Source of the DNA: Euglena gracilis
Lineage: Eukaryota
NCBI GenBank assembly: GCA_039621445.1
Contig: CP154954.1
Span: 34,011,737 to 34,075,736 of the forward strand
Direction: 5' to 3'
DNA length: 64,000 bases
Shown: piece after piece, positions 1,063 through 64,000 of the stretch
Layout of the letters: each line of letters begins with the position of its first letter
How positions within the stretch are numbered: the stretch's first letter is position 1
Position numbers and translations under genes: made by a program
The notes under the pieces: generated by a model
Told to the model about the DNA's origin: nothing
The model's database searches: none
The model's input: the letters and a program-made list of their open reading frames with translations, nothing else

Positions 1063-1150
1063 TAGACTGCCCAATTTTGATTCCCCTCCAACATGCGGCT
1101 ACGAACAACAAGCTGAAAAACGACAAGAAACTGCATAAACTGACGCTGAC

Positions 1151-6015: not shown

Positions 6016-6250
6016 ACAAAACACGGTGCAAGTACCTACCAGGTTTCCACAAACATTTCATCCCCCTACACCCGACATCCAAGGTGAGGTTCGGCACAGT
6101 CCACGAGTACCCGCCAGTGGAGGACGAGGTGGAAGGTGGTGAACAAAAACCCGATTTGGGGACAGAAAAACCACAGAAACACATCAGAAAACTGCAGGAG
6201 GCAGCCACAGCGACACCAGAACGGGCCACAGCAAAAAAACAAAACCAAAA

Positions 6251-11119: not shown

Positions 11120-11326
11120 GAATGGGAGGTTGATAAAGTACTGAACCACCGCAGAAAAGACGGAAAACTTCAATTTTTGATTCAGTGGAAAAACTGGGAC
11201 CCATCCGACACTCAGTGGGAACCCCTGAACCACTTCTTCCTCCGAACGAACAAAGAGGTGGTCCAATATTGCAAGGAACGGGACTTGGCTGTGGATGTGA
11301 GGGAGTTGCTTGATGGGATGGAGTGA
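11120..11326 (+). other. Chromodomain at the integrase C-terminus, A1
   Basis: EWEVDKVLNHRRKDGKLQFLIQWKNWDPSDTQWEPLNHF fits the chromodomain consensus; separated from IN by TAG where copy 2 has TGG. Confidence 0.9.
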
Positions 11327-12463
11327 CACGTGTCACATACCCCTGCGCTCTCTCGCACACACCGCCACGTCGCCACCCCCAACGACCTGGAAGCCAACCC
11401 CAGCTCTACCACCAACATTAACCTCTATCGACTTGAACCTGTACACCACTGACAAAACCTGCCTGACTCAAAACGACAAAACGGGCCTGGGCAGCCCCCC
11501 TGGCCAGCCCACCTGAACCTGGACCGCTGGCCAACCCAACTCGAACCAGCCCAACAGACCTGTGCAAGACCCGACACGACCCGATTTGACTGACCTCAAG
11601 TGCCTCTCTACAGCCAATCAATCCATTCTTCATCTGTTGTAGTGGGTTGGGACCCCCCCCATGGAGAACGAACCTTCCCCCCCGGACCTGGCCAGCCTAC
11701 CTGTAAAAAAAAACACAGCCCCCAACCCCAACCGTAGCAGCCAGCCAAAACTGGGCAAACAGTTGAAGGGGAAACTGACTTTGACCCAAAAACGCAGACC
11801 TGGCCGACCCCGGGCCACCGGCCTGGGGGGGGGGGGGGGGCGAGGACCCGCCACAGCACCTGACCTCGCACAAACCAGCCTACCCCCCAGAAAAAAAAAT
11901 ACAAAAATACAAAAAAAACATTGTCCTTGACCCAGCCTGATTTTTAACCGAAACCCAGCCTTCACCTGATTTTATTAAAATTCGTCCCCGGCCGGAGCCT
12001 GACCGCTTGGGCTGGGGGGGGCGGGCTGGAAGACCCCAGCTGGACCCACCCCCCACCGAACAGACACCAAGCCTAGGCACCGAATTGGCTAACCGAACAG
12101 AAAACGGCTGTCTAGGACCCTGACCGTGACAAAACAACTCACCTGGCCTGGGAATAAAAATTTCCTGAAAATTTTAACCGTGGCCGGCGCTTGGTTCACA
12201 AACGGCGCCTGCCCCCCCCCAACGCCAAACAGCCCTAGGCGGGCTGGGGGGGGGAGGGCAACACACCAGCCCTGCACAGACCCAACTACCCAAAGGAGAA
12301 CATTTGACTCAGCCCCCCGGCCATAAAACGAACCTGAACGGCACAGCCCCCTGAGGGGGGGGGGGACCCTGAACCACAACGGTCCCCTCGCTGGCCCCTC
12401 CTCACAACGAGTGCACTCCGCACCCCTTCCTGTTGGAGTCGTGAAGAGTTGTAAACAACTTGT

Positions 12464-12473
12464 GGAAGGGGAG
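12464..12473 (+). promoter_or_regulatory. Polypurine tract, A1
   Basis: GGAAGGGGAG immediately before the 3' LTR. Confidence 0.88.
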
Positions 12474-12951
12474 TGTGAGTCAGGGGTGCTGAGTGCCCAA
12501 AACAACATAACCTAACCCAACCCAACCTGATAACTCTGCAGTTAGGATTAGGAAAATCTTATTAGGAATTTCAATTGCTGACCCCATTGTCCCTGCACAG
12601 GGCTCTGTCTTGTTTTTGTCTGTTTCAAGTTCAAGAATAGAATTATCTTGGTTATCAATTATCATTCTTACTTGGACAGTACGTGGTTCATTACATTGGT
12701 GCTGGTTTTGGAATTGCTGAATTGCTTGTATTGTGCTGTTGGTCTTGTGAATTTTTTATCAAAGAAAAGGTGTGAGCCACCCAACTCACCTGTTTTCATT
12801 AAAAAAACCCACCAAAAACAAAGAAAATGCAATTTTTAAAACAGGCCGCGAGGGGAATTGAAAACACCCTGGGCAGGGTTGAAGATCCTACGCAACGGGG
12901 TGCCGGCCCCGAGGAACTGGAAACTCCAGGGCGGGCACCACGGTTACAACA
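12474..12951 (+). repeat. 3' LTR of A1 (478 bp)
   Basis: Direct repeat of 574-1050. Confidence 0.95.
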
Positions 12952-43092: not shown

Positions 43093-43511
43093 TGTGTACC
43101 AGGCAGCATGAACATGGCACTGTGCATAGCAGCAGACTGCAAAATGTACAATGTCATGCCAGATAGTACTATTCCATGTTCTGCAATACCAATTGCAGAA
43201 TTAGGAATAGCCTATCCTATCTCGGATCTGCCTTCTCTTTTCACAGGTGGTATTATTGTTTTGTTTTTGTGTTTCATCAGCCCAAAAGGGCAAATCAGAG
43301 ATTTGAAGATTAGAACTCCGATAGGAGAACATTTGTGGAACTGAAGTTCCAAAATCACACCTGGTTTGCCTTGTGCTCTGCATAAGCCCAAAGCCAATAA
43401 AAACTAATAGTTAAGTAAAAGATTTTCTTTTTTGTTACTCTCCTGGTTCTGTTCCCACGGGAGGGTGTAAGTAGGCCGACAGGCAGTGGGAAAAGAGTCA
43501 GGGGACGTACA
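43093..43511 (+). repeat. Family B 5' LTR
   Basis: Inverted termini TGTAC/GTACA; shares both ends and internal blocks (CACAGGTGGTATT, TGTTACTCT, GTTCCCACG) with 62782-63093. Confidence 0.75.
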
Positions 43512-43513
43512 CT

Positions 43514-43528
43514 TGGTAGCAGATTAGG
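43514..43528 (+). promoter_or_regulatory. PBS of family B, iMet-like
   Basis: TGGTAGCAGATTAGG after the LTR end; identical at 63096-63110. Confidence 0.75.
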
Positions 43529-43768
43529 TTTCTTGCCTACGCCCCTTCTCCCCCCTTCTTCCCCCCATCTTAAAAGGTGACTTCAAATAGTGAGTGGTGC
43601 TGAGCCTATAGGCTATTAAGCATCCACGAGCTGTTTGGAGCCAACTTCTAAGCACAGGTACAAGCTTCAGGAGGCTGTGGGCAGTATACGCTGTCACACC
43701 CTTCTAAGTTTGTTCCTTTGCTTACTTTTTGGGTTTTCTTGTGCCTGTTTGTGCAAATAAATAGAAAT

Positions 43769-46700
43769 ATGCAGAGCTCAAGCACCAACACACTCATTGA
43801 TTACCAAGAATTGATAAGTTCTTTGAGAAGCACTTGTCATGAATTTTTGCAAGAGGAGTATACGCTCCAGTCCAGGTATACCCCAAGCTCTATAGAGCAT
43901 CCCCACGCCAAAATTTCCAGCTCTATTGAGCATCCACCCACCCCAGTGGTTTCCACCTCTATTGAGCATCCCCCCACCCCAGTGGTTTCCAGCTCTTTTG
44001 AGCACCCCCCCACCCCAGTTTTCAGCTCTATTGAGCATCCCCTTACCGTAATTTTCAGCTCTACCAAGCATTCCCCCACCCCGCTTTCCAGCTCTATCGA
44101 GCATTCCCCCCACAGCTCTATCGAGCAACCCCCCACCCAATGGGTGCCACACCTAACGGTGTCCAGCTCTATGGAGCATTCCCAACCCCAACGTGGTCCA
44201 AACCTAATGGTGCCTCATCCCCTCGCCCAATGGGCTCCCCCACACCCATTGGTGTCCAGCTCTATCGAGCAACATATAGCCCAACGGGCACAACCCCTTT
44301 TGATGGAAAGCCGATCGGCTGATAGGTATTCACCCCAGCGAGATTTCGCACCAATGCCCATAGGCACATATGACCCTGAGGCGGTTACACCACAACAACG
44401 TTTTGTTGATGATGGGTTGGAAACACCATGTTATTTCCAGCTCCCCCATTCTCACCCACCCCCAACTCTGATCGGACAATTGACATCCCCACCCGATACG
44501 GGTTCTTTTCCTGCCATGCCTTGCATGGACTCGGCTAATTTGCAGGCACAATTGCCACAAAAATTCCAAAAAGTGAGTGAGACAGTGTGTGAAATACAGT
44601 CCCGCAATGATGCGAATTTTTCCCACTTGCAACATAGTTTGCAGGCTTTGTCTGATCAACTGGAGCCAATAACGGCACAAAAATCCTGATATGGGAGCTT
44701 TTGTTACCTTGAAGCAGTTCGATACCTTAGCTGCTGCATTCCAAAAAGCGCAACAGCGCATTATGGAACTGAGCCGTGAATCGGCAAATTTTCACCATAT
44801 GCACACCCAACCTCGTGAAGGTTTCACTTCCAGCACTTATGTGCAGCAATTGGAGGAAAGACTTTCCCGGTTGGAGCGAAAATCATGTGGGTGTGGTGAA
44901 AATTCTGTTGAAATAGCAAGTTTTTTCGCCCATATCGCGAATATCGCAAGCAGGCAGGATGCTTACCACCAACGGTGGCAGAATAATATTGTTGACATCC
45001 AAGCCGCAATTGCGGAGTTGCAGAACCGCAATGCGGTACCATGTTCACATCATTTAGAACTTCAGCGATTGTCTGCAGATATGCATGACGAAAATCACCA
45101 AGTCAGGAAAAAAAATTTGTGACGGTCCGATACGGACCGAAGAAACAGTGAATCAGCAAGTCAAAAACTTGCAAAAAGATTTCTCAGCGCTATCCGCGCA
45201 AGTTTCAGTGTTTTTGGGACAGCCAATGGCTGAAAACGTGCGGAATCCGAAAAATACCCCTCCTTCCAAACCATCTCCACAACTGGAGTCTATTTCCGAA
45301 GCAGTGCACACTCTAGCTGTGCGACTACGGGAATTGGAAAGTGGTTTTGGAAAAATTTCTCAAGAATTCCGGTCTTTTTCTGACAAAATCCCTCTTCTGG
45401 ACGATATGTCCAAACACCGCAGGCGTATTAAGCGTTTGCAGGAATATATTGGTGCAATCACCGATCATCTGAAAATTATCGACGATTTGGAGAAACAGTT
45501 TCAAACTTGCCGCAGATTCCAGCTTCAAAAGCGCTAATAGCGCACCTTTGGCAAAGCCTATTGGCACATTGCCACAAAATTACGATTCTGCTCATGCAGT
45601 GGTCCCTCCTCCGGCGGTACCAGTCCCAATGGACCATTTTTTGGATGATGGGGTTGGTTTTCAAGAGAACGCCAACAGAAACCCTCAAAGAAATCGAAAA
45701 ATTTGGGAATATGAACTTTGTCGCGGTATGAGCCGCACTCCCGCTCATGGTATTGATCCTGAGATGCATCAGCATCACTATTCGCGCATTCGGGATTCAC
45801 CAAGTTTGCAAGGTACCTATGGTACACCAAGTGGAATATTGAATGCGCATTCGCAATATACACCCAAAACTACACTTGGTGCAACCACCGAGGTACCCGC
45901 GCATGGTGCGGTTTTGCGCCCAGGCCCAACCTCCTTGAATACCACCGAAGGGCCATGGGAGTCTCAGAAAGATATCAAAGGAATTATCGCTATCGCGAAA
46001 AAGGTGAAGCCCCAATGGGACGGTGAACCAACAACATGGAAACAGTTTTTCCGTGATTGGGAATACTACTGGGAATTGAAGGGACCAACCCAGTACGAAA
46101 ATCCGGAGGTGATCAAAATGGAATTCATAGACTGTTTACCAAAAGACGAAAAGGAACGCGTCAGACAATTGGTCATACGCGGGGGCATTTCTTTTCAGGA
46201 TTTAGTAGAGCAATATGCTTCTTCATGTTCAAGTTTGGTTTCCAGAATCACTCTGGAGAGAAAATGGCGGCAATATGCCCCCATGACCGAAAATGGAGGT
46301 CGATAGACCTATGGTACTCAAAATGGCTTTCTTTGGCAGCCGAAGTAGACGACTTAGGCGAAACCCAAATGAAAGAGCAATTCGACACAGTGTTACTGCA
46401 CTTTATACCCAAACTCATCAAAGAAATTCACCGCGAGGAACTCGCAGGAGATGTTTTGACGCTCGGTGAGCGATGAACTATGTTTCCAAACAGTTGAAGC
46501 TATCACAGCTTTTAGGACAAATCCAGTCGGCTTATACGAGCCACCCCACGGCAGGAATACCTGCTATCCAAGTCAGTTCTGTGAAAAAAGTGTCACACTT
46601 ATCACGTACCGCTATGGCGGAATCCAAGTTGCGCAATTCGCGCTCTTCAGAAGAATTTTCGGACAAATTGTGCTTTTTGTGTAATAAAAAGGGTCACATA

Positions 46701-47126
46701 TCTTGCCATTGTCCAAATCCCGCAGCGCGAAAGCGCAACGCAAGCCCAAGAGGATCAGCCTCATCATGCAGTTCTCGATTTTCACAAAATGCGCATTCAC
46801 AAAATTCAAAATATCGATCACGATCCACATGTTCACTGTGCGGATCAACCAACCACCCCTCACCTAAATGTCTCTATGCGACTCCTCCCCACCCAAGCCA
46901 TCGCGATATGACTCGCAGTTCAAAAGATCATACTTCAGCCAAAAGGCATAAGGTAGGTCAACGAACAACCTCTATTGAGGATTATCACCCGGCTTCGGGC
47001 AGGGAGGGGGATGATACCCCATGTAACAAAAGGGATCATCCCTACTTTAGCGCTCATAAATCCAGAGACGTATATGCGTCAAGAAAGTCAAAGGCTGATA
47101 TGGCCACCGGTTCGGATTTTGAGTAA
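43769..47126 (+). pseudogene. gag: Family B gag, fragmented
   Basis: SSIEHP repeats, coiled coil, capsid-like PQWDGEPTTWKQFFRDWEYYW, knuckles CFLCNKKGHISCHC (46671-46712) and CSLCGSTNHPSPKC (46830-46871). Confidence 0.8.
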
Positions 47127-47738
47127 AGTCACCCGAAACCCAGGGATGTGGACTACGGAGGCTACTAGAAAGGAGGTGACAGGAGTCATGACCCTAGTCA
47201 TCCCCTGCCCAGTATCCTTTCTGGTCATCGTTCCAGGATTTTCCGGTGTCCCCGCTCAAAATTCTGCCAAGTTTTTGACATATAGACAGTTTTGTGTTTC
47301 CTGTTCTGGTGCATCATGGGATACGCCATGAATGACCTTGTGGTTGAATGGATTTACACTTCAAGAATGCACACAGCTCCGCAAACTTCTTCCCCCATCA
47401 AAAACTTCCACTACTCATCATTTTTACATACCGTTTTCGATGACAGCAACATCGTTTTCAACAACACCAACACCGTTTTCAACCCAGGGGTAAAGAGAAA
47501 GTGCCCGCCCTACCCGCCGCATATCCACAAACGTTCCACATGCGGTAGGGGTAACAAGTAGCTTAACCCCCTATCGTTTCACTGGGTTCCAAGACGAAAG
47601 CCCTAAGGCCTGAAATTCGAATGGTGTCGAGTAGTCGCACAGCTGCTTTCATTTTTCGTTTACCACCAGGTTTGTCGATTGCAGACAATCCTGTACAACC
47701 CCGCAGCTCAAATTCGCATAAAATTTTTCTGACACACT

Positions 47739-48025
47739 TGCAAGTTGGGGGATGGTCCAGCGTGTCCAAATAATTTCAGCACATCAGACGTCTGGCCAAA
47801 ACCAACTTTTAAGGCTTCAGGGGTCTTCTTCCCAAACTTCCCCACACAGCACCCCAGAAGACAAGACTTGATACTTGAATCCAGTTCAGAGTCCCACGCA
47901 AACTTGTACACTGTTTGCCAGCTTGCCTGTGAAAAATGTAATTCCCCAAAATCTCTGTGAGCCAATGCTTAATTTCTGCTGGCATCTCTTACCAAAATAA
48001 ATCTCAAATCTGGCCCGCGCTCACA
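47739..48025 (-). repeat. Element C 3' LTR
   Basis: Repeat of 49108-49394; adjacent CCCCCCTTCCC (48026-48036) is a minus-strand PPT. Confidence 0.8.
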
Positions 48026-49107
48026 CCCCCCTTCCCAAAAACAATTGCCAGGCAATTGTCCAAAACAGAAATAAAAAATGAGCGGGCCGGAGATAAAATT
48101 CAACACACACACACGCAGCAGCGACATGGAAAAGTGATGAATGGCGGTTCTCGAATTTAAATTGCCAAATCTTCGAATCCACAGATAATTGTATACATGT
48201 CCAAATCCACAGATAAACCCCATGTGGGGCCCGCCTACCTGCACCCCAGCCTTTCCACCTTAGAGGGCCATGTCGTACGACCTACCCCGTACAACATGAC
48301 CCCCCATGGGGTCCAGCCGGGGCTTCGGCGACCCCCGCCGAGCCAAACCGGAGCAGAGCCCCCTTGAAGCGGCCCAGCACCGAACGGGGAGGCGGCACAC
48401 ACCACAGCCATCACAGCAGCAACAGGTTGACAAACTTGAAGATGATCACCCGATGTGCATTTGTAGGGCTGTTGCACAACCCTGATCACTGTTTTTTACG
48501 AGGTCAGGCTCCTCGCGCCGAAATCTCCAGGGGGAACTTGACCAATGACGTTGAAACTTGACATCTTGAACTTGGGAACTTGAAATCTTGGACATCACAC
48601 CTTGGATCCTCCACAGATTGACCTTGGGAACGTGGAATCTTGGAAATGATGACAGAACTCCTTCACAGATTGACCTTGGGAAATTGAAATCTTGACATGA
48701 CCACTTTCTTCCACCACAGATTCCTTGGGATCTTGAAATTGAACTTGACATCTTGACTTGAACTTGACCCTGAAATGACATCTTGACAGACATTTTGGAG
48801 ATTGAGATTATTAATGATGATGGCGGGCTGTGATTGACATTCGTCTGTCCTTCAGCCCAGGCTCCAACCAAGATCCACAGCAGCACCAACTCCAGGATCA
48901 CCTGCTGCTAGCTTGATCTGGAGAGTTGATCATGGTGGCCCAACACAGCATCTCACTGTGTGCCAACTGGTGCCTTCCTCTGCCTTGTCCCCCTTCTGCC
49001 GCTGTGCTGGCCCGCCACTTCCATGACATTTCACTTCTGAGTGTCTCCCGGCTCCACAGGTACGTTTGTACGGGGCTTTTCTGCACTGCAAATCTCATAC
49101 AAGTTTG

Positions 49108-49394
49108 TGCAAGTTGGGGGATGGTCCAGCGTGTCCAAATAATTTCAGCACATCAGACTTCTGGCCAAAACCAACTTTTAAGGCTTCAGGGGTCTTCTTC
49201 CCAAACTTCCCCACACAGCACCCCAGAAGACAAGACTTGATACTTGAATCCAGTTCAGAGTCCCACGCAAACTTGTACACTGTTTGCCAGCTTGCCTGTG
49301 AAAAATGTAATTCCCCAAAATCTCTGTGAGGCAATGCTTAATTTCTGATGGCATCTCTTACCAAAATAAATCTCAAATCTGGCCCGCGCTCACA
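49108..49394 (-). repeat. Element C 5' LTR
   Basis: Near-identical to 47739-48025. Confidence 0.8.
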
Positions 49395-49524
49395 TGGTAG
49401 CAGAGGTTACAACATGTTACAACCTGGTAGCAGAGGTGGACTGCCCATTTTTGATTCCCCTCCAACATGCGGCTACGAAGAAGAAACTGAAAAACGACCA
49501 GAAACTGCAAAAACTGACGCTGAC

Positions 49525-52500
49525 ATGCCTGCTGTCTCAACTGCCATCGTTAGGATGGTGGAGCCGGCGGATGGCTGCCCAGCTCTGAACCAAACTCTGG
49601 ATGTGCCAGCTGCCTTAACCGCCATCGCTAGGGTGGTGGAGCAGGCGGATGGCTTCCCAGCCCCGAACCAAACACGGGAAATGCCAGCTGCCCTAACCGC
49701 CATCGCTAGGGTGGTGGAGCCGGCAGATGGTTTTGCCGCCATGTACCAATCACTGGACAGCAACAGGTGGACTGAAACTGAACAAGACGGCACAGACATT
49801 ACAGTGCCACGGACATGCAATGACAGCCCACGTGTCATTGCCATGGTGCACATGGACCAGGACGACACCGAACAGACCGGTCCAGCACCAGATTACACAG
49901 AACTGGACGAAAACAACGAACCGTACTTCGACGAACAGGTGTTTGCACCACAAAACTGGTACCAACAGCCAGAAACGGACACTCAGAACGAACAAAACTG
50001 GCAAACTGCAACAGCACAGCAACCAGGAACCCAGAGTTTTGCACTGGTGGCGGTACGACAGAGCCCGGAACAACCAGACCACCTCCAGGGTGAAACTGAA
50101 ACTTCGTACCAGGAACCTTCGTACAGCTCGTACGAGATTCCACAGCCGGAACCACAGAACCAGAACACTGACTGGGACTGGTGGTCGAACTTTGCGTACG
50201 AAACTGGACAGCTGACCCAGGAATTTCAACAGTTCAGACACAAAACTGAACAGACGAATCAGCAAACGGCAGAAACACTGCAGCAGCTACAGCAAACAAC
50301 GACGGAATGGGTCAGCGAACTGCACGCAGCAGTCAACAGACAGGGTGAAGCACTCATGACAGAAATAAACGGCAGACACGAAGAACTGACGACAGTCCTG
50401 GCAACAACCCAAGCAAACATGGAACAGGTGACCGTCAACCAGAACAGACTGTACCAGGAACATTTCAACAGAATGTCACAGCAGATCACAGAAGTCAGGG
50501 AAATGTCTGGCTCACTGGGTGAAAAACTCAGGGAATTTCACAGTTTTCTGCAGATGGCAGGGGGAAACGCACAGAACCAGGGTGAACATTTGGTTGGTTT
50601 ACTACACCGACAGCGAGAAAACGAAAACACAACTGCAGAACTGCAACAGAGATTGGCTGTGGCAGAAGAACGGGTCGCAGGAATCACAGGCGGAGTCCAA
50701 ACGGTGAACAGCAAAGTGGACGAAACTGTGGCAACAGTGTCCAGAAAAGTTGAAAACCTCAGAGGCGAAATCAGCAGTGTGGTGGAAAGAATTCAGAAGG
50801 ACATGGGCAATGAAATCGGAAATCTGGCAGGACGGGTTCAGCAGCAGGAAAAAAAAACGACAAAAAAAAACAACCATTCAAAACTGTGATTACCTACACA
50901 AAAAACTGGTCGAACTGCAGAAAATCCCAGATCAGCAGCAGCAGATTACACAGCTGAACGAGGAAATCGGCAGACTGAAACGACAGGTGGAAACTCTGAC
51001 CTCCAACGAAGAAAAACACAAACAACGCACTGAACGCCTGAACCTGGAGGTCGGCAACCTGGGTGACAGGGTGGACGAAACAGCCCAAACGACTCAAAAC
51101 CTGCTGGGTGAACTACAAAAAGGGACCATTAAAACGGGAACACATGCCACATCTGAACATGCCAAATTGCTGGAAATGACACCTGCCATTGGCTCAATGA
51201 CAACCAGGGTCGGTCAACTGGAAGCAAAACTGGCTGGTCTGACAACAAAAACTGCAGAACGAGAAACACATGATAACGGCATCTGGCAGCATTTACATTC
51301 TCTGACCACGGAACTGCAAACACAGCAGAAACGGTGGACAGAACAGCTGGTGACCCTGGACAGAAAAATCAGTATGGTGACAAAAACGACTGAAAACCTG
51401 ACTGAAAAACTGGAAAGGCAAAACACCCAGCAAATCACAACCCCCAGCCCTAGCCTGGCTGAAATACCCAAACTTTTTGAAAATCTTTGCATTTCCTCTC
51501 GCCCAGCCTGCACAGGGGCCTTCGGGCCAGAGTCAGGGGCCAGCCCCCTGGCCAGTGGGCCTCCCTCGAGGACCCAGGCTGGACAGCCAGGGGCAGCCAC
51601 AACGGCCCAACGGACTGAACAACCCCCCCAGGGGGCAGACAGGGCCGCGGGCCAACGGGGATCGGGGACCCCACAACCCCAGAACCAGCCCCCACCAGCC
51701 CTGAGGGGCCAGCCCACGAGACAACACGGGACGGGGACCCTAGAACCCCAGGCCTGGCCAACGGGGATGGGGACCCCACAACCACTGGCCCAGCCACGGC
51801 CAGCCCTGAGGGGCCAGCCCGCAGGAAACCAAGGGACGGGGACCCCAGAACCCCAGGCCTGTCAAACGGGGACGGGGACCCCACAACCCCTGACTGGTAT
51901 GTTCAGCCAGAGCGGCCAGCAGTGGGGGGACGAAACACCACACCCAAAAATGGAAGGAGGAGCTGCAGCACTGGGGACCGTTAACTCGGCTTCCCTGGTG
52001 GGGCAGCTCATCCAGCAAGAACTAAAAACTGCCTTGACACCGTTAACTGCCCAACTGACCCGACAAACAGAACGACCGACTGCAGTCCCGATGAGCCCAA
52101 CACTCACGACAAACCCGACAAGCCCAGCACCACAGCCAACCCAGCCGACTCAGCAGACTCAACAGCCAGTGACGACGCAACAAAACCCACAGTCCCGGAC
52201 ACGGGGCTTGTTCATGTGGGCAGACGAAACAGAAACTCAGAACACAGCCACAACCTCCTGGGTGGGACCCCAGGTGGGGTCTACCCAAACTGCCATCCAC
52301 CACATAGGAGAGGAAACAGTGGTGGCACCCGTGGCAACGGCCCCGACAGCATCCTTCGGGCTGCTGCTGGGTCCAGTGGGCGCGGCAATGACCAAAGACC
52401 TGGTAAGACCAACATTGCAGGGGAATTTCGCAGATTTTGCCGTGAAATTTCCAATGTACCTGCAACGTGTGTCAGCCGGTCAGGGGTCCCTGACCGATGA

Positions 52501-53767
52501 CCTGAAACTGTCACTGCTGGAGGGCAGCCTGGACAGTGCCAGCAAACTGGAACTACAACGCAGACAGGAACGCGGTGAGAAAATAAAATACCAGGAATTT
52601 TGGAACTGGATGTGCCAGAAATACGGTGGAGACACACAATCAGCCATCAAAGACGAACTGAAAAACCTGAGACCAAAAACGGAAGGAAAACTGACACTGG
52701 AAGCGTGGAGGGAGTTTGAAGCCCATTTCAAACTCCTCTACAGCAGGCTGGAAAATCCATCAGAAGAAGACGCTTACAACCTGGTGGCTGAAAAAATGCC
52801 TGAAACGCAACGCAGAAGCTGCATCAGGGAACAGGACCGCAGAAATCAGGACAGACCGACACTGAAACTGAAAGGGGTCACGAACATTACAAACGTCCCA
52901 GATGCAACAACGGAAGACGTTCGTGCCCTGGTGGCAGCAACAGTGGGCACAGGTGAAAACCTTCAGGTGGCACGAGACGGAAAAAACTTCAGGATCCAAC
53001 TGCACAGCAGCAGAGCTGCTGAACTGCTCCTGATGAAAAACGGTTCAACGCTGCTGACTGGACATAAACCCCACTTCACACAGGTGCAGGCAAGACTGAC
53101 TCTGGATGAACTGTTCCAACGTGTGGAAACCGAACTCAGGTGCCAACAACAGTCAGACTCCCTGGGTAGGGGGTACAACGGCTGGCAGAACCAACCTCGT
53201 GAAAACAGATCACGGTCAATGGACCGCAGGGGTTACGTCAGGGAAGTCAACGAGGAGGAGAAAACAAAATCCAGAAGTCGGACACCACCTTCCAGATCCC
53301 GACCTAACTCCCCTGGACCTCGAACCCCAACACCTGAAAACCCCAGACCCCCTTCTCCACGCCAGCAGGTGACCATGCAAGTTTCAGAACAGCCTGGCCA
53401 GGGACGGTACACCAACTGGTCAGACTGGGGACAAAACGACTGGGGCAAAGGCAAAGGAAAGGGGAAAGGTCAAAACTGGGGTTCAACCAAAAACTGGAAC
53501 CAGAACCAGAACTGGAATCAGAATTACGGCAAAGGCTACAATTCAGGAAAGGGATACAACTCTGGGAAAGGATACGATTCTGGGAAGGGGAGCGGGAAAG
53601 GAAAAGGCAAAGGGCAGCCACAGCCACAGCCAGCAGCAACAAAAACGGAACCACAGCCACAGCAAACCAACTCACAGGAGCCAGCCATCCAGCGGCAGGG
53701 ACAGCCAAAGGCAGAAGCATCTTCCAGCAATCGCTGGCAGCCAGTTCAAAACGCAGAACGGAAGTGA
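49525..53767 (+). pseudogene. gag: gag-like ORF1 of A2, one frameshift in A-runs near 50850-50870
   Basis: ORFs 49348-50889 and 50750-53767 match A1 gag. Confidence 0.82.
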
Positions 53768-54000
53768 AGGGGCTGCGGCCTGAGGGTAGGGGACGAGAGG
53801 GGCGACTCTCTGCAGACACAACCGAAACAACAAAACAAAACAAGGGAACCAGGTCCAGAGCCGCAGCAGTCATACACACTGGGTAAGGGAGGTAAGAAAA
53901 AATCCCAAAAGAAAAACATCCTGACAAAAAATTACTCCACAGCCCAGAACCGAAACGGGAACAGGTCAGCTGCAGGTTCGGCAGAGCAGCTTCACGGTGG

Positions 54001-56139
54001 GTGTCTGAAAACTACCACGTGAAGGAAGAAAAAATGACAGAAATTCTCTCACACTTCGGGGTCCAGCCCCAGCTGGACGCCTTTGCAACGGAAAAAAACA
54101 AAAGATTCCCGCAGTGGTGGGGATCTGGCAGCCCTGAGGGCACAGACGCATTTGAAAAAGCCTGGCACGGAAAACTGCTGTGGATGAACCCACCATTCAG
54201 CAAAATTTCACAGGTGGTGAGAAAAATTCAAACAGACGAGGCCCATGCACTCCTCATGGTACCCAGATGGGTTCACAGAAAGTGGTACGGAGAAATCAAA
54301 AAACTGGCAGTGATGTCAATGTTCATCCCAGCGGGAACAAAACTGTTCGGACAGGGTGACAAGAACTGCAGGAATACACCGTGGCATGTGGAAGTGTTTT
54401 TGGTATGCGGACACAAAACACGGTGCAAGTACCTACCAGGTTTCCACAAACATTTCACCCCCCTACACCCGACATCCAAGGTGAGGTTCGGCACAGCCCA
54501 CGAGTACCCGCCAGTGGAGGACGATGTGGAGGGTGGTGAACAAAAAACCGACTTGGGGACAGAAAAACCACAGAAACACATCAGAAAACTGCAGGAGGCA
54601 GCCACAGCGACACCAGAACGGGCCACAGCAGAAAAACCAAAACCAAAAATGCTGGACCTGTTCTGTGGAACAAAATCGGTCAGCAAGGTGTATGAAAAAA
54701 TGGGTTTCCAGGTGGTGACGGTGGACTCAGACCCCAGATGGAAAGCGGATTACCAGGTGGACGTACTGGACTGGGACTTCAGAAAACATTTCAAACCTGG
54801 TGAATTCCACACGGTGGTGTGTGGAGTTCCCTGCACAGAATTCAGCATTGCCCTGACGACAAGACCCAGAAACTTGGAAAAGGGAGACAGCCTTGCAAAG
54901 AAAGCCCTGGAAATTGTGGAATTTCTGCAGCCGCAGAAATGGTGGTTGGAAAACCCAAGGTACGGATACCTGGGAAAACGAGATTACATGGAACCGTACC
55001 CGTACATTGACGTGGATTACTGTCAATACACAGACTGGGGTTACAAAAAACCAACACGAATCTGGGGCAGCCCTGACATCCTGCAGGTACCAGCAAAACG
55101 GTGTGACGGAAAAACCTGCAAGAACCTTGACCCGAACGGTGGTGGTCAACTGGTGAAACTCAGCAACAAACACAACATTTCGGCCTTCAAAAAATTCAGG
55201 ATCCCAGAACAACTGATTCAGGACCTGGCGGGGTTCCACGAACGGCTACGTCAAACCAGCCAAGCCCAGGCCGCGCAGCAACAACCGCTGCAGCAGCCCA
55301 GCCCTGCCCAGACTGCACGACAAAACATGCTCTCACAGCCCAGCCCAGAACTGACAGGTGGACAGCCAAACTCTGATTCAACTGACAAAACAGAACCAGA
55401 CCAAAACATTCGGCTTCCAAAACGACTGCGTGAACCGGTGTTAAAACTCCTGCTGGGGCAGGTCATCAGCAGAAAGAAAGCAAAACAACTCCTCATCGAA
55501 GTCCGTGCTGTGTTGCCGGATGGCAAAAAAATGTTCCTACAGGCCCTGATCGACACGGGAGCACAGGCAAACCTGGTGAAAAAGAACCTGATTCCCCAAC
55601 AAAACTTCAGACGTTCACAAAAACCCTTGGCCCTGATCACAGCAGACGGAACAAGGATGGAAGGAGGACTACACGAAGTCACACTGGAACTGCAGTTTTC
55701 ATCACGGGTGCACAACACGGACAGAACAAGGGAGTGGTACACCATTGGAACATTCCATGACGCCGACATCCAAGTGGATGCCATCCTCGGATATCCGTGG
55801 ATGGAACAACACCAACTGGGGGTTTTCCCACACCTACAATCACTAGCCCTCATAGGTGAACCACTGCGGCTGCTGTCCAGTTGGCACCAGCTGAAGGAAC
55901 AAAAACACAGGGAACGAAAAATACACCAACTTCAGAAAAACATTTCAGAGGTTCGAGCAATGAATTTGCAGATTCCTGCTGAAGCGGGCCAGGACGAGGA
56001 AATACTGTTTGAAGACGAAACAACACTGGAAACTCTGGCAAGACAACTTCAGAAATCGGCAAAGAAATCTGACAGGGTTCACGGTGTTGTGGTGCAGAAG
56101 GACAGGAAACACAAGGCGAAAAGGTGGCAGAACTGGTGA
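54001..56139 (+). CDS. Uninterrupted N-terminal pol frame: amino-MTase, C5-MTase, aspartic protease; true start uncertain (first ATG 54034)
   Basis: One 712-codon frame with LDAFAT, DAF, NPPF (~54001-54410); MLDLFCGTKS, GVPCTEFS, WWLENPR, KPTRIWG, IPEQLIQDL (54649-55236); LIDTGA (DTG at 55552-55560). Confidence 0.88.
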   Translation: MSENYHVKEEKMTEILSHFGVQPQLDAFATEKNKRFPQWWGSGSPEGTDAFEKAWHGKLLWMNPPFSKISQVVRKIQTDEAHALLMVPRWVHRKWYGEIKKLAVMSMFIPAGTKLFGQGDKNCRNTPWHVEVFLVCGHKTRCKYLPGFHKHFTPLHPTSKVRFGTAHEYPPVEDDVEGGEQKTDLGTEKPQKHIRKLQEAATATPERATAEKPKPKMLDLFCGTKSVSKVYEKMGFQVVTVDSDPRWKADYQVDVLDWDFRKHFKPGEFHTVVCGVPCTEFSIALTTRPRNLEKGDSLAKKALEIVEFLQPQKWWLENPRYGYLGKRDYMEPYPYIDVDYCQYTDWGYKKPTRIWGSPDILQVPAKRCDGKTCKNLDPNGGGQLVKLSNKHNISAFKKFRIPEQLIQDLAGFHERLRQTSQAQAAQQQPLQQPSPAQTARQNMLSQPSPELTGGQPNSDSTDKTEPDQNIRLPKRLREPVLKLLLGQVISRKKAKQLLIEVRAVLPDGKKMFLQALIDTGAQANLVKKNLIPQQNFRRSQKPLALITADGTRMEGGLHEVTLELQFSSRVHNTDRTREWYTIGTFHDADIQVDAILGYPWMEQHQLGVFPHLQSLALIGEPLRLLSSWHQLKEQKHRERKIHQLQKNISEVRAMNLQIPAEAGQDEEILFEDETTLETLARQLQKSAKKSDRVHGVVVQKDRKHKAKRWQNW

Positions 56140-59100
56140 AAAAACTGCGGCAGGACTATGAAGGAGTGGTCCTGCGGGACAAAATCTTCCCAGACCCCCC
56201 AGAACGCGGACCACTAGGTTATGGGAAAATCGAACTGAAACCTGGAACAGTGGCGAAAAAACAAAGACCCATCCACATGACAGGAGAACGCCGACAGGCA
56301 CTCATCGACATGGTGGACGAATGGGTTAGGGACCTGAAAGTGGAAGACGGGAGGAGTGACTGGTCCAGCCCCACGTTCGTGGTGGCCAAAAAGGGTGGAA
56401 AATGGAGAGGGGTGGTGGATTTCAGAGCACTGAACGAGGCAACAATCACAGACGCCCATCCCCTCCCTAGGATAGAAGACATCCTAGTTCAACAAGGACA
56501 ACGGGCCCTGTACAGTGTACTGGACCTGAAAGACGCCTTCCACCAGGTGCCACTGAGATCAGAGTCCAGACCTTACACCTGCTGCAGCACACCTAAGGGA
56601 ACAAAACAGTGGAGAGTGGTGGTCATGGGAATGAAGAACGGGGTACCGATTTTCCAGAGGGTGATCGAGTACAGCCTGGAGGAGGTACAGGACATTGCAA
56701 ATCCCTACGTGGACGACATCATCGTAGGAACCATGTGGCAGGGAACTGAAGACAAACCCTCGAACAACACGACAAGGACATCAGAAGGGTGATGGAGGCA
56801 CTGAAAAAACAGCAACACGTGGCAGACATCAAGAAATGCAAATTTTTCGTGAAAGAGGTGGAATTCTGTGGACACGTACTCGGTGGTGGACAACAAAAAC
56901 CTGCACCTGGGAAATTGATGGCCTTGGAAAAATGGGAGGAACCCAAAACGGTCACAGCCCTGCGGGCATTCCTGGGATTCACAAACTACTACGCCTCATA
57001 CATCCCAGGATACGCAGAATTGGCTGCAGACCTGATGGAAAAACTGAAGGTAAAAAAAGGACAGGGGAAGAAAGGAAGCCTGACACCTGTGTTTTTCGGT
57101 GAAAAGGAAAGAACAGCCTTCCAGACCATCAAAGAAAAACTGCTGGGAAGCCTGAAACTGCAAACAGTGAACCCAGACAAACCGTTCATACTCAGGGTGG
57201 ATGCAAGTGGCAGAGCCGTAGGTGCGGCTCTGGAACAATTTGCGGAGGACAATGAAGAAAAACCAGACCCAACAACAGCCATGACCAAAAAAACAGTACC
57301 CGTAGCTTTCTGTTCACGAAAACTGACACCTGGGCAGGTTCGCTCGTGGTCTCCTAGGGAGAAGGAGACCTACGCAGTGATCCTGGCCCTGCAAAAATGG
57401 GCTTCCTGGATAGGAATGCAACCGGTACTGGTGTTGACGGACCACAAGTCCATTGAGGCATGGGCAACGGAGGCGCTGGACACCCCCAGTGGACCAGCTG
57501 GACGTAGGGCTAGGTGGCACGAACTGCTTTCGCGGTTCGACATAACCGTTGCATACGTACCTGGCAAAGACAACACGGTCGCCGATGCCTTGAGTAGGTG
57601 GGCCTACCCCGCCTCACAGGCATTCGCCGACGTGAGTATCCACGGGAGTGAGGAGGACGACCGACTCATGAAAGAAATCATCAAACAGGAGGAAAAGGAA
57701 CAGAAAACTTGTATGGTGATCAACGTGCAAGACCTGACACAGGCACAAAAACAACTTCAAGAACCCGTCACTGTGGCCGTCACAACAAGGGGGGGAGCCA
57801 AAACGGGTGAAGATTCGCCCACAGTGCCTGGTTCAACGGAAAACGGTGACACCCCTCAAAAAATTTCAAAAACACCTCAAAAACCTGCAAAAACGACAAA
57901 GAAATGGGTTGTGAAGGAAACGACTGTGGTGGAACCAAGCAAAAAACTGGCTGAGGCAACCCCAAGGGAGACCACGGATGAGGCGGGAAACCTGAGCCGA
58001 CCAGACCAACCAAAAAACAAAACCCCAGAAAATTCAAACACGGCCGAGGGACCATCCACTGAGGAAGACCCACCAAGGCGAAGACCCCTGGAAGAGGACC
58101 TGTGGAACCCCTAACAACAACAGACTCAACAAAGCAACAGGACGCGCAAGGTGCGTCATCCTGAACGGGGACACCCGTTGGACCTCCATCAAGGGGAGTG
58201 CACTCCCCGGAGCTTCAACAGGGGGAACCGAAAGGGGTGATGGACAGGGAATGGAAGAACGAGTACGAAAGTTGCCCAAAGTGGGGACCTGTGCTCAAGG
58301 ACCTGAAGGGAACAGGGTTCAAAAACTGGCCTGACGGGTACCGATTCGACAACGGCAGGCTCTACAAAAACGCACTCCTGTGTGTACCAGGTGGGTTGAC
58401 TGGAAACGTAATTCGGGAACGTCACGAAACAGCCGGGCACCCAGGGTCAGCCCGACTGTGGGACCAGATGAGAAGGTGGTTTGCGTTTGCGGACCACCAG
58501 GATGCAAAAAAACTGACAGGCAAAAAGATGACCATGTGTGAAACCTGCCAAGCCACAGAACCCAGCCACCTACCATACAAGTGCCCCATTGAACCGACAC
58601 CAATTCCTGCACACCTGATGGACAGTGTTGCCATCGACTTGTTCTCACTTCCTGAAACGACCTTTGAAGAGAAAAATACGACACGTTGGCGTTGTGTGTG
58701 GACAGGCTGAGTGGATGGATGGTTGCAACCCCCCACCTGGCCAAGGGACTCACGGCAGAAAAGGTTGGAAAGGACATGTACAAACAGTGGGGAATTTTTG
58801 GGATACCCTCGGTGGTGAGCTCCGACCGGGGCTCCCACTTCACAGCCGGTTGGTGGAAAACACTGTGTGCTGCCCACGGGGTCCGTGTGGCGTACGGGCA
58901 GGCATACCACCACCAAGCCAACGGACGGGCTGAGGTAGCGGGTCAACAAGTCCTCCGAAAACTGGCAAAACTGGCTGCTGAGAAAGGGGTACCCTGGGTT
59001 GAACTCCTACCGAACGCCTTGAGGGCCCTACACGACGTCCCAGGTGAAACGGGATTGTCACCGTACGAAATTGTGTTTGGCATGCACAGACCGTTGGCGG

Positions 59101-59716
59101 GATTGCCATACCAACCACAAAAGGAAGCGGAAGGGGCCACAACGTTCTTGGAAAGGATGAAAGAACAAGACCAGTGGGTGAGCCTGGTCCTGAACGAAAA
59201 ACAACGTGAACGGGCTGAATCGGTGAACCAAAAACGCAGAGAACCACCTGTCTTGGAAATCGGTTCCAAAGTCTGGTATCAACCCGAAAAACAACCTGGC
59301 ACCGACAAACTCGAACCGAAGTGGAAATGGCCTGCAGTGGTGTTGGAAAGAGTGGGACAACACTCCTACGTGGTGGAACTTCGACCTGGTAACCGACAAC
59401 CTGCCCACCGTTCACAACTCAAACCCCACGTGGAGGACTTCTACAACACAACCCTGTTCCCCTCTACTTTTGGTCGGGCAAGGCACAGGAGTTGGAGGTC
59501 GGACCTGACGAGTGGGAGGTTGAAAAAGTTCTGAACCACCGCAGAAAAGACGGAAAACTCCAATTTTTGATTCAGTGGAAAAACTGGGACCCGTCGGACA
59601 CTCAATGGGAACCCCTGAACCATTTCTTCCTCCGAACAAACAAAGATGTGGTCCAATATTGCAAGAAACGGGACCTGGCTGTGGATGTGAGAGAGTTGCT
59701 TGATGGGATGGAGTGA
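56124..59716 (+). pseudogene. pol: Rest of A2 pol: RT, RNase H, integrase, chromodomain; frameshifted
   Basis: YVDD, RVDASG, SDRG, NGRAE and WEVEKVLNHR across ORFs starting 56124, 56789, 58198, 58686 and 59492. Confidence 0.92.
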
Positions 59717-61441
59717 CGCAAGTCGCATACCCCTGCACTCCCTCACAGATGCCGCCACGTCGCCACCCCCAACGACCCCGTCGCCAACCCCAACCCTACC
59801 ACCCACACAAACCTCGACCAGCCCCCTTCACCATCTCCACCATACTACCCCCACCCCTACGTGCCCTTGAGGCCCAACTTCCTTCCCCCCTGTGCCTCCG
59901 AACTTCAACACCAACGCAAACGAGGCCACCCCCACCACCATACCGCCCCCCACCGCCATACCAACCCCCACAACAACCCTCACCTCAACCCCCTCACAAG
60001 CCCCCACAGCCACCCCCACAGCGGAGCCCCAGCCCGAACCCCCCGCAGCTGGAGCCACCGAGCCCTCCGCGGAGGCGGAGACGCTCAGTCTGCTCCAGCC
60101 CGGGCAGTCTCCGGGGGGTATAGCTGCCCCTGGACAGCCCCCCCGCAACTCCCCCCCGCAGTCCACGACCCCCCTCACCGCAGCCCAAGCCCCCCACCGA
60201 CGACAACCTCCCCAAGAAACAGTGGTGGGTAGCGGAGCTGCTGGACCTGTGACGGGTGAACCCCCCTCCCCTGCAAGGCGCGGGTGCCCCCACGGGCCCC
60301 GCCAGTATACCCAGAGCCTTGCGGTGGGACCCGAAAACAACCTGAAAGAGACTTCACGACCGAGATTCCGAGCTGATTTACAACCCTGACCGAATTCTCA
60401 AGCTGCACACCCCAGTCCGACATGAAGCTGTGCACCACTGACAAAACCTGCCTGACTGAAAACTACAAAACGGGTCTGGGCAGCCCCCTGGCCAGCCCAC
60501 CTGAACCTGAACCGCTGGCCAGCTCAACTCGACCCAGCCCAACTGTCCCATACAAGACCCGATCCGACCCGATTTGACTGACCTCAAGTGCCTCTCTTCA
60601 ACCAATCAATCCATTCTTCATTTCTCCATCGTTGTTGTTGTGGGTTGGGACCCCCCCCCGTGGAGAACGAACCTTCACCCCTGAACTTGGCCAGCCTACC
60701 TGTAAAACAAAAAACAACAAAACACAGCACCCAACCCCAACCGTAGCAGCCAGCCAAAACTGGGCAAACGGTGGAAGCGGAACCTGACATTGACCCAAAA
60801 ACGCAGACCTGGCCGACCCCGGGCCACCGGCCTGGGGGGGGGGGGACGAGGACCCTCCACAGCACCTGACCTCGCACAAACCAGCCTACCACCCAGAAAA
60901 ACATCAAAAATACAAAAAAAACCATTGTCCTTGACCCAGCCTGATTTTTACCCAAAACCCAGCCCTCAAATGCTTTTATTAAAATTCGTCCCCGGCCGGA
61001 GCCTGACCGCTTGGCCTGGGGGGGGGGGGCTGGAAGACCCCAGCTGGACCCACCCCCCACCGAACAGACACCAAGCCTAGACACCGAAGTGGCTAACCGA
61101 ACAGAAAACGGCTGTCTAGGACCCCGACCGTGACAAAACAACTCACCTGGCCTGGGAATAAGAATTTCCTGAAAATTTAACCAGGGCTGGCGCTTGATTC
61201 ACAACGGCGCCTGCCCCCCCCCAACAAACAGCCCTAGGTGGGCTGGGGGGGGGGGGAACAGCACACCAGACCCCCGCACAGACCCAACCCCCCGGCCATA
61301 AAACGAACCTGAACGGCACAGCCCCCTGAGGGGGGGGGGGACCCTGAACCACAACGGTCCCCTCGCTCGCCCCCTCCTCACAACGAGTGCACTCCGCACC
61401 CCTTCCTGTTGGAGTCGTGAAGAGTTGTAAACAACTCCTTC

Positions 61442-61452
61442 GGGAAGGGGAG
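61442..61452 (+). promoter_or_regulatory. Polypurine tract, A2
   Basis: GGGAAGGGGAG before the LTR. Confidence 0.88.
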
Positions 61453-61937
61453 TGTGAGTCAGGGGTGCTGAGTGCCCCAAACAACATAACCTAACCCAAC
61501 CCAACCTGATGACTCTGCAGTTAGGATTAGGAAAATCTTATTAGGAATTATTAGCATTGCTGACCCTATCTGTTTGCACAGGGCTCTGTCTCTGTCACTG
61601 TTTTTGTCTGTTTCAAGTTCAAGAATTGAAGTATCTTGGTGGAAAATATCATTCTTACCTGGACAGTTCGTGGTTCATTACATTGGTACTGGTTTTGGAA
61701 TTGCTGAATTGCTTGTATTGTGCTGTTGGTCTTGTGAATTTTTATCAAAGGAAAGGTGTGAGCCACCCAACTCACCTGTTTTCACCAAAAAGACCCACCA
61801 AAACAAAAGAAAATGCAATTTTTGAAACAGGCCGCGAGGGGAAGTGAAAACACATTGGGCAGGGTAAAAGATCCTACGCAAAGGGGTGCCGGCCCCGAGG
61901 GACTGGAAACTCGAGGGCGGGCACCACGGTTACAACA
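61453..61937 (+). repeat. 3' LTR of A2
   Basis: TGTGAGTCAGGGG...GGTTACAACA; more diverged from the A1 LTRs than they are from each other. Confidence 0.93.
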
Positions 61938-62079
61938 CACTCCACCCCCCCAGACCAACACGCGCGACAAGGACAACTACTCAGCACCTCCCCCCAAGGT
62001 GTGCACTCTAGGAGAAATTTCCACACAACCAACAACCAAACACAAAAGGAAATAACTGAAACCAAACTAACCACCACCC

Positions 62080-63406: not shown

Positions 63407-64000
63407 GATCGCCGACCTCTAGCCGGGGCAGAGCGCTCGTTTTTGGAGCGCCGGCGCAGCCGATTTCGGCCGAAAACGGCCGAAAAATGACGTTTTTCGG
63501 GGTGTTCGTGGTTTACGTGCTATTTTGCGCCTCCCGGGCGGTAACGGCTGCGTTTTACGCACGCCCACCGCGGGCAAAATTGCGCCTATCCGCCCGCCGC
63601 CCTTCGCAACAATTAGAGAAAGGATCGCCGACCTCTAGCTGGGGCAGAGCGCTCGTTTTTGGAGCGCCGGCGCAGCCGATTTCGGCCGAAAACGGCCGAA
63701 AAATGACGTTTTTCGGGGTGTTCGTGGTTTGCGTGCTATTTTGCGCCTCCCGGGCGGTAACGGCTGCGTTTTACGCACGCCCACCGCGGGCAAAATTGCG
63801 CCTACACACTTGCCGCCCTTCGCAACAACTAGGTAAAGGATCGCCGACCTCTAGCCGGGGCAGAGCGCTCGTTTTTGGAGCGCCGGCGCAGCCGATTTCG
63901 GCCGAAAACCGCCGAAAATGACGTTTTTCGGGGAGTTCGTGGTTTACGTGCTATTTTGCGCCTCCCGGGCGGTAACGGCTGCGTTTTACGCATCCCCGCC
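63407..64000. repeat. 216-bp satellite resumes in the same orientation
   Basis: GATCGCCGACCTCTAGCCGGGG onward matches the monomer. Confidence 0.97.

Follow-up and report, generated by a model that had tools for sequence, protein, structure and literature searches.

The closest described relatives of the element reported here are the 'EpiLTRs', long terminal repeat (LTR) retrotransposons that unite a DAM domain, a DNMT and a chromodomain (preprint, Fernandez-Moreno et al., bioRxiv 10.64898/2026.05.21.726589, May 2026). The accessible text of this preprint names Euglena gracilis, with a 'structurally distinct configuration', and Cymbomonas tetramitiformis as hosts. It also records DAM domains in LTR elements outside the DIRS group, and places EpiLTR DNMTs in a clade sister to DNMT4. 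The accessible part of an older study (de Mendoza et al. 2018, PMC5890265) assigns Symbiodinium DNMTs to DIRS-like and LINE elements and a Klebsormidium DNMT to a Gypsy element, and the idea that such elements methylate their own complementary DNA (cDNA) comes from the same source. The subject of the present analysis is a stretch of DNA of 64,000 nucleotides (the window, in which all positions below are counted), which contains two copies of a Ty3/Gypsy chromovirus-like LTR retrotransposon of about 12.4 kb, copy 1 being inserted in a 216-bp satellite. This element very probably belongs to the EpiLTR kind, with a pol region led by a Dam-like methyltransferase (MTase) domain and a compact C5-cytosine MTase, both placed before the protease (PR).

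The trio that defines EpiLTRs, DAM, DNMT and chromodomain in one LTR element, is present in the window element, which is likewise of Ty3/Gypsy type, and its CpG depletion suits the Euglena epigenome described in the preprint. It is probably the Euglena EpiLTR family itself or, should the host turn out to be a different species, a further member of the EpiLTR kind. Two features set it apart from the published description. In Cymbomonas, the DNMT lies at the 3′ end of pol, whereas here both MTases precede the protease. In addition, the preprint calls the EpiLTR DNMT sister to DNMT4, whereas the nearest relatives detected here, in searches of phage families, phage genomes and viral structures, are compact MTases of phages and giant viruses. 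The elements KnitGypsy-Dnmt3, SymbioDIRS-Dnmt3 and SymbioLINE-Dnmt (PMC5890265) resemble the window element in having a C5-MTase within the retrotransposon coding region, under purifying selection. As far as that source describes them, their MTases differ in being of Dnmt3-like or orphan lineage with no adenine-type MTase alongside, while the window element has a viral-type domain of about 205 amino acids (aa).

An earlier note on this DNA, written from its letters alone, had suggested that the architecture may be undescribed. This suggestion falls with the preprint, and because the idea is already there, the window adds an example, not a discovery. The background given in the note, C5-MTases in retrotransposons of Symbiodiniaceae and Klebsormidium, was nearly right, the element types being those named above. 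Literature searches (EpiLTR; retrotransposon with Dam, DNMT and LTR) returned no description of the combination besides the preprint. What the window adds is the viral-type cytosine MTase, an RNA cap MTase as the nearest solved fold of the adenine-type module, and the existence of relatives that carry both modules in six different orders.

The second of the two copies (copy 2) encodes both MTases and the protease on the forward strand in one stop-to-stop frame of 747 codons (53896–56139), where all of the motifs quoted in the earlier note were located. The Dam-like domain (53968–54510), of the eukaryotic DAM family, contains LDAFA (54073–54087, with DAF at 54076–54084), WWGSGS (54115–54132), NPPF (54187–54198) and VPRW (54259–54270). 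The compact C5-MTase domain (54634–55260) contains motif I as LDLFCGTKS (54652–54678), VPCTEFS (54826–54846, with the PC of motif IV at 54829–54834) and the ENP of motif VI (54949–54957). These are followed by an aspartic protease (55501–55797) with IDTGAQ at 55549–55566. Pfam places Dam (PF05869) at aa 49–147 of the frame (E 5.5e-7; score 29.9 bits, cut-off 28.1) and DNA_methylase (PF00145) at aa 251–353 (E 1.1e-4; score 22.2 bits, cut-off 22.0; profile positions 2–110 of 324 only), while its aspartic-protease matches at aa 536–634 are weak and fall below their cut-offs. Both MTase assignments are marginal by Pfam alone, and they are backed by PHROGs, folds and relatives. Profile and structure searches of the two segments bear out the two MTase classes that had been read from the letters, with PF05869, PF00145 and PHROGs families by sequence and the folds of PCIF1/Dam and DNMT1/DNMT3 by structure.

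By Pfam, the order of pol is Dam, DNMT, PR, reverse transcriptase (RT), RNase H, integrase (IN) and Chromo. In the downstream frames of copy 2, RVT_1 lies at 56385–56732 (E 5.6e-22; its frame is shifted by a 4-bp gap at 56095), RT_RNaseH at 57098–57538 (E 4.9e-22), and the zinc-binding and core domains of the integrase at 58384–58910, a region interrupted at 58672 by a 1-bp gap (Integrase_H2C2, E 8.4e-6; rve, 26.9 bits with E 6.1e-6, under its cut-off of 32.6). The chromodomain follows at 59513–59617 (E 6.1e-11). The element has the features of a Ty3/Gypsy chromovirus, namely direct TG...CA LTRs with a short duplication, the order PR-RT-RNase H-IN, a DDE integrase and a C-terminal chromodomain. 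LTRs, Pfam order and folds together uphold the reading of the earlier note, a chromodomain Gypsy retrotransposon with both MTase classes in tandem before the protease. Elements of the DIRS group have the DAF...W...NPPF signature and PF05869 in common with the adenine-type domain, but they have a tyrosine recombinase and split or inverted repeats, unlike the DDE integrase (rve), chromodomain and direct LTRs seen here. Classification as DIRS was rejected, since the Pfam scan gave rve and Integrase_H2C2 and no phage-integrase (tyrosine recombinase) family.

The cytosine MTase domain is about 205 aa long, and of the PF00145 model only the initial third aligns. The domain has motifs I, IV (PC) and VI (ENP) and the class I MTase fold of DNMTs. 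The canonical target-recognition domain (TRD) and motifs IX–X of the approximately 320-aa catalytic domain are absent, and a short Cys-rich stretch stands at the place of the TRD. In an alignment of 33 sequences, C67 (PC motif), S71, R79, E106 and P108 (ENP), C130, T141 and P191 are invariant. The AlphaFold model has a predicted local distance difference test score (pLDDT) of 93.4 and a predicted template modelling score (pTM) of 0.89. Against the PDB, Foldseek gives it 199 matches at E<=0.001, with DNMT1 (3.4e-8) and DNMT3A (3.9e-8) at the top and DNMT3B, DIM2 and M.HaeIII also among them (TMq 0.47–0.65, or 0.54–0.65 for DNMT1/3). The family profile matches motifs IV–VI of DNMT1 at E 1.1e-4. 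Besides the invariant C130, residues C157, C162 and H172 at the TRD place are nearly invariant, and phage homologues retain at least two of the Cys; judging from the residues conserved, a small metal-binding site at C130/C157/C162/H172 is possible.

The relatives detected nearest to this domain are viral. It matches PHROGs family phrog_757 at E 1.2e-13, and a tblastn search of phage genomes gave matches in 61 records, with a single match covering at least 80% of the domain in 27 of them. Among the 12 phage matches listed, identity is 28.9–30.8%, the best E is 6e-16, and 93–97% of the 209-aa domain is aligned. The 'C-5 cytosine-specific DNA methylase I' of Bacillus phage Deep Blue (221 aa) aligns over the full length. 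The best viral structure match is the putative cytosine methyltransferase of Tetraselmis virus 1 (TetV-1; 218 aa), with E 1.2e-21, template modelling (TM) scores of 0.87/0.83, a root-mean-square deviation (rmsd) of 2.1 Å and 34% identity. A feature search of the ESM Atlas, taken as a lead only, points to clusters of compact viral DNA_methylase proteins (score 0.96–0.97). Because the domain aligns end to end with compact viral MTases, it is a member of a compact viral-type subfamily that lacks the canonical TRD, and a truncated eukaryotic DNMT was rejected on the same ground. The viral enzymes have motifs I, IV and VI, YCQY and KPT..W in common with the element domain; they differ in that they stand alone, and the phage motif IV has DC where the element family has PC. 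None of these viral enzymes is known to have been assayed. A minimal viral-type cytosine MTase with no recognisable TRD raises the question of how, or whether, CpG is selected. In the Deep Blue phage (L001, 1–2160), the compact homologue is the last of three adjoining genes annotated as cytosine-5 DNA methyltransferases.

The adenine-type domain is conserved in a similar manner. An alignment of 24 sequences shows D37, F39, W51, G52, S55, W66, W72, P75, H93 and W101 as invariant, and N74-P75-P76 as nearly so (N74 and P76 in at least 90% of the sequences). Its score over the curated cut-off of PF05869 and its Asn-Pro-Pro-aromatic motif assign it to the Dam family, and its profile matches to phage Dam families include phrog_111 (E 6.2e-9) in addition to PF05869. 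The NCBIfam family TIGR01712 also matches, at E 8.3e-6, far below its cut-off. The motif NPPF indicates an MTase of the N6-adenine rather than the N4-cytosine type; an N4-cytosine reading of this domain was rejected by this rule, since the motif is not SPPY/F. The AlphaFold model (pLDDT 85.9) predicts the fold of N6-adenine MTases. Foldseek gives this model six PDB matches at E<=0.001, and the top five are all PCIF1/CAPAM, an N6-methyltransferase of cap-adjacent adenosine (best E 8.5e-6). A fold search of 48,161 representative chains likewise ranks PCIF1 first, with a Z of 11.6 (145 residues aligned, rmsd 3.4, 12% identity), against 9.0 for the next chain, 8.4 for T4 Dam and 8.2 for E. coli Dam. 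Since best Z values of 7–8 are common in the absence of real kinship, by the search tool's own note, PCIF1 alone stands out. The sequence of the domain is therefore closest to phage Dam and its nearest solved fold is PCIF1, which partly fits both published views. In the first of these, Iyer, Zhang and Aravind 2016 (PMC4738411) place the MTase domains of DIRS1 in the PCIF1 clade and think them likely inactive, in the part of the paper available. In the second, the accessible preprint text (10.64898/2026.05.21.726589) derives DAM domains from prokaryotic DAMs and stresses a conserved Asn-Pro-Pro pocket.

It is possible, if doubtful, that the Dam-like module is not a DNA MTase. It could methylate RNA in the manner of PCIF1, at a cap-adjacent adenosine or in an RNA-DNA hybrid, or it could bind RNA or a polymerase II partner without catalysis, and the element would then write at most 5-methylcytosine (5mC) on DNA. 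The rank of PCIF1 in both structure searches favours this, as does NPPF, which PCIF1 has in common with the Dam-like domain. The placement of the DIRS1 domains, held to be likely inactive, in the PCIF1 clade (PMC4738411) points the same way. Moreover, the preprint text (10.64898/2026.05.21.726589) tells of eukaryotic DAMs that brought no gain of N6-methyladenine (6mA) in E. coli assays, and suggests a hybrid substrate. Because the nearest solved fold is that of an RNA cap methyltransferase, RNA and RNA-DNA hybrids become candidate substrates after these negative DNA assays.

Several points speak against such a reading. The sequence profiles PF05869, phrog_111 and TIGR01712 all favour phage Dam, and no PCIF1 family appears in a Pfam scan of the domain at E<=1. 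The structural match is confined to the MTase core of PCIF1 (chain residues 492–664), and the element domain has neither the WW nor the helical cap-binding domain of that protein. A PDB sequence search with the Dam-family profile gave no match at E<=1, so no structure of PF05869 type has apparently been solved and PCIF1 may be nearest by default. NPPF and a ratio of non-synonymous to synonymous substitution (dN/dS) of 0.18 speak against a dead domain. Finally, the preprint text (10.64898/2026.05.21.726589) reports a higher level of 6mA for DAM-LTR copies compared with the remaining LTRs.

Relatives with both modules are numerous. A word-indexed protein search gave 43 relatives of 258–823 aa, and one of another collection, P0004, is 96% identical and has Dam, DNMT and PR in one open reading frame (ORF). 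In an exhaustive search of a representative library, 4968 proteins matched at E<=1e-3, 1512 at E<=1e-10 and 178 at E<=1e-30. Both modules occur in 42 of the 204 database proteins fetched. A search for longer proteins gave 22 relatives, 12 of which have both modules by domain hidden Markov models (HMMs); these were built from the study's own two alignments, of the same matches, and serve to map domains, not to test membership. Pfam, run on five of these 22, showed that four of them unite Dam, DNA_methylase, RVT_1, RNase H, rve and Chromo in a single ORF. Intact single-ORF relatives are P0191, P0196, P0197 and P0198 (1763–1911 aa). Six relatives looked up in protein clusters are annotated only as 'hypothetical protein'. 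Public environmental assemblies contain many diverged dual-MTase polyproteins, in several orders and in part as intact single ORFs.

The order of the modules was surveyed in 22 proteins with near-complete domains, the window's own counted among them, with the protease marked by the crude pattern D[TS]G[AS]. Six orders were found: Dam-DNMT-PR as in the window (P0004, P0188, P0047 and P0189), PR-Dam-DNMT, DNMT-Dam-PR, PR-DNMT-Dam, DNMT-PR-Dam and Dam-PR-DNMT. P0188, P0047 and P0189 keep the order of the element at 43–46% identity. Pairwise identities of Dam and DNMT co-vary (r 0.79 over 231 pairs, a value reached by none of 2000 permutations), which fits a co-inheritance of the two modules as read from these sequences; shared ancestry within clusters inflates r.

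A bolder proposal, unlikely as a whole, joins these observations to the RNA substrate. In it, the Dam module would be of PCIF1 type and would N6-methylate the element's own RNA (the cap-adjacent adenosine or an RNA-DNA hybrid) and not double-stranded DNA. It would be co-inherited with a virus-derived, TRD-less cytosine MTase, and the pair would have been reshuffled relative to the protease, into six positions or more, within a large chromovirus radiation that has mostly escaped sampling and is so far seen in environmental assemblies alone. If true, the PCIF1-type RNA reading would explain the failure of every heterologous 6mA assay.

To return to the EpiLTR-like element with two MTases, the copies differ from each other in a way that indicates constraint. 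dN/dS was calculated by the method of Nei and Gojobori from the gap-free codons of copy 1 and copy 2. It is 0.18 in the Dam-like domain (14 synonymous and 10 non-synonymous changes) and 0.30 in the cytosine MTase (11 and 13). For comparison, dN/dS is 0.17 in PR, 0.12 in RT, 0.20 in RNase H, 0.29 in the IN core and 0.06 in the chromodomain, and 0.31 in the gag-like ORF, 0.58 in the linkers and 0.92 in the IN zinc domain. Both MTase modules are under purifying selection like the core enzymes, on small numbers, and constraint on both segments had been a check proposed with the original reading.

Copy 1 was said earlier to have the same layout. This is true of its DNA, where the Dam-like domain lies at 5571–6113 in the ORF 5370–6305 (coordinates converted from the copy 2 alignment) and the C5-MTase domain at 6248–6861. 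It is not true of its reading frame: copy 1 has one base fewer than copy 2 at 6240 and at 6478, so that three frames share its cytosine MTase domain. In copy 2, the frame is broken by seven gaps at other places, of single bases or four bases (53926, 56095, 56754, 57287, 58099, 58672 and 59452). The 1-bp differences between the copies are mostly in homopolymer runs, so some may be assembly errors.

The stretch is present in 20 public sequencing runs, and four of them were mapped on 49000–62000. A leaf-litter metatranscriptome has 86 contigs in 27 of the 30 bins of copy 2, including 53380–54187 and 54200–54953, and the three bins of 30 that have no contigs in run X20 are no evidence of absence. 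Two further runs, RNA by guess only, have 171 contigs spread over 30 bins and 99 spread over 29. All contigs of these three runs that cover 53925 and 56753 have the extra base missing from copy 2, and they are mixed at 58098 and 58671; copies free of these shifts therefore exist. The fourth run, of DNA, holds 29,624 contigs of the element family (its contigs total approximately 2.3 billion letters), a sign of very high abundance.

One contig of run X16, which is RNA by guess, shows TTTTTTTTC immediately ahead of G 61581 in the 3′ LTR of copy 2, a single loose end of nine letters. It matches the last 10 nt of the spliced leader of E. gracilis, which reads TATTTTTTTTCG there according to the part of the source available (PMC4778363). 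The LTR-holding bin of X16 has a depth of about 696, against roughly 5–130 elsewhere, and other contigs have A-rich tails near 61743. These data hint at a euglenid host and at an LTR transcript that is trans-spliced and polyadenylated at 61581–61743; the leader could also be mimicked by a poly(A) tail of the opposite strand.

The element also carries a CpG signature. Its observed/expected (o/e) CpG ratio is 0.56–0.57, compared to 1.54 in the satellite. Copies 1 and 2 have 412 mismatches, 75 of them CpG transitions, and the share of differing sites is 22% for CpG, compared to 4.0% for all sites. The pattern fits CpG methylation of the element in the host, and does not indicate which enzyme is the writer.

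It is most likely that both modules are active enzymes that are delivered with pol and act on the element's replication intermediates or its insertion site. In such a scheme, ribosomes would read through the in-frame TGA that follows gag and so make pol, and the protease would free both MTase modules inside the particle. The cytosine MTase would then methylate CpG sites, either of the newly made cDNA or of the insertion site, and by this proposal a new copy would come to resemble the host's default methylated DNA. The adenine-type module would mark the cDNA, an RNA-DNA hybrid or the element RNA, and the chromodomain would direct integration. A mobile element that brings its own writers of two nucleic-acid marks, together with a reader of chromatin, could itself determine the epigenetic state of new copies and not just undergo that of its host. 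The view of the earlier note that the element writes 6mA, or N4-methylcytosine (4mC), together with 5mC, is unproven and is read from sequence.

A number of observations weigh against this picture and have to be set beside it. Frame-breaking gaps occur in both copies, so neither assembled sequence could yield a complete pol. A common frame links the gag-like ORF to pol, with one TGA between them, and the 61 bases around it are identical in copies 1 and 2; the RNA fold of the 100 nt from this TGA is no better than that of shuffled sequences (z 0.85; 157 of 200 shuffles fold equally well or better), and because no stable structure follows the TGA, read-through has no support beyond the shared frame. 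Pfam scores of both MTase domains are barely over their cut-offs, and NCBIfam matches overall lie far under theirs. Motif I of the cytosine MTase reads FCGTKS, as opposed to FSGTGS in most relatives, with K also in several other lineages. The dN/dS values have a thin base of two copies and 24 changes in each of the two domains. DNA may be present in the RNA libraries, and for two of these three the RNA label is a guess. The failed E. coli assays of the preprint bear on the adenine-type module, and the element is of the EpiLTR kind by likeness to the text of the preprint, not to its sequences.

Two further readings were weighed. The architecture could be new, as a lineage or arrangement apart from the published EpiLTRs or in a host with none reported, and this is quite improbable. 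In its favour, the accessible preprint text leaves the domain order of the Euglena elements unstated, the 3′ position of the Cymbomonas DNMT and the affinity of EpiLTR DNMTs to DNMT4 differ from what is found here, and a single preprint is all that the literature yields on the combination. Against it, the trio of DAM, DNMT and chromodomain is precisely what that text describes for Euglena gracilis, the TTTTTTTTC end in X16 is identical to the last letters of the E. gracilis spliced leader and so hints at a euglenid host (PMC4778363, as far as available), and the 29,624 family contigs of the DNA run agree with a large, repeat-rich genome. An accidental tandem with no role for the element, arising by nested insertion, chimeric assembly or decay, has next to no probability: the preprint text cautions of nested insertions and assembly artefacts in Euglena, both window copies are frameshifted and copy 2 has no 5′ LTR, but two copies with 95.6% identity across 10.4 kb have the layout in common, a single open frame takes in all three modules in copy 2 and again in P0004, the order is kept in P0188, P0047 and P0189, dN/dS is below 0.31 in both modules, and contigs of the three RNA or RNA-guessed runs have the extra base at 53925 and 56753.

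The remaining anatomy of the element, all on the forward strand, is as follows. Copy 1 extends from 573 to 12951 and has a pair of 479-bp LTRs at 573–1050 and 12473–12951 with 97.3% identity. They are of the TG...CA type, starting with TGTGAG and ending in ACAACA. The sequence TGGTCGCAGAGGT is found immediately 3′ of the first LTR (1051–1063), and the purine-rich GGAAGGGGAG lies before the second. CCGG stands on either side of the copy, and joining both flanks restores the satellite consensus. From these positions, CCGG would be a 4-bp target duplication, TGGTCGCAGAGGT the primer-binding site (PBS) and GGAAGGGGAG the polypurine tract. The gag-like ORF of copy 1 (3873–5369) ends in the TGA at 5367–5369, directly before the pol ORF (from 5370), and the same TGA is at 53765–53767 in copy 2. 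Copy 2 is 95.6% identical to copy 1 from 49416 to 59815 (10.4 kb). Its internal part from 49416 to 53767 comprises a PBS-like site, a long coiled-coil/repeat ORF and the gag-like ORF up to the TGA. Its 3′ LTR (61452–61937) is 90.4% identical to 573–1050, and only about 10 bp of the 5′ LTR are left.

Upstream of the gag-like part (1139–3010 in copy 1; 49342–53767 in copy 2) is a very long Q-rich ORF with coiled-coil-like matches, and internal tandem repeats of 78 bp and 105 bp, to which Pfam assigns no family with significance. Downstream of the chromodomain, a proline-rich stretch that reaches to the 3′ LTR (11429–12472; 59717–61451) is the most divergent part of the copies, with 89.4% identity compared to 95.6%. 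In the DNA run, the bin 59850–60283 has about one tenth of the depth of other bins.

The window as a whole has 55.8% G+C and no N, and Rfam at its gathering thresholds gave no match in it. Literature searches on a Euglena satellite or Gypsy element yielded nothing but genome papers on plants and insects that have no bearing on it. The region 43094–49415, which separates the satellite from copy 2, has 47% G+C and no LTR of the main element, and its ORFs resemble the gag of another retroelement; the ORF 46470–47126 has two CCHC-like knuckles. The 216-bp satellite is present as about 129 units at 12952–40720, 11 further units to 43093, and pieces at both window ends (1–573 and 63407–64000). It has approximately 60% G+C in addition to its high CpG o/e of 1.54 and occupies nearly half of the window, and copy 1 is inserted in it with the CCGG duplication.

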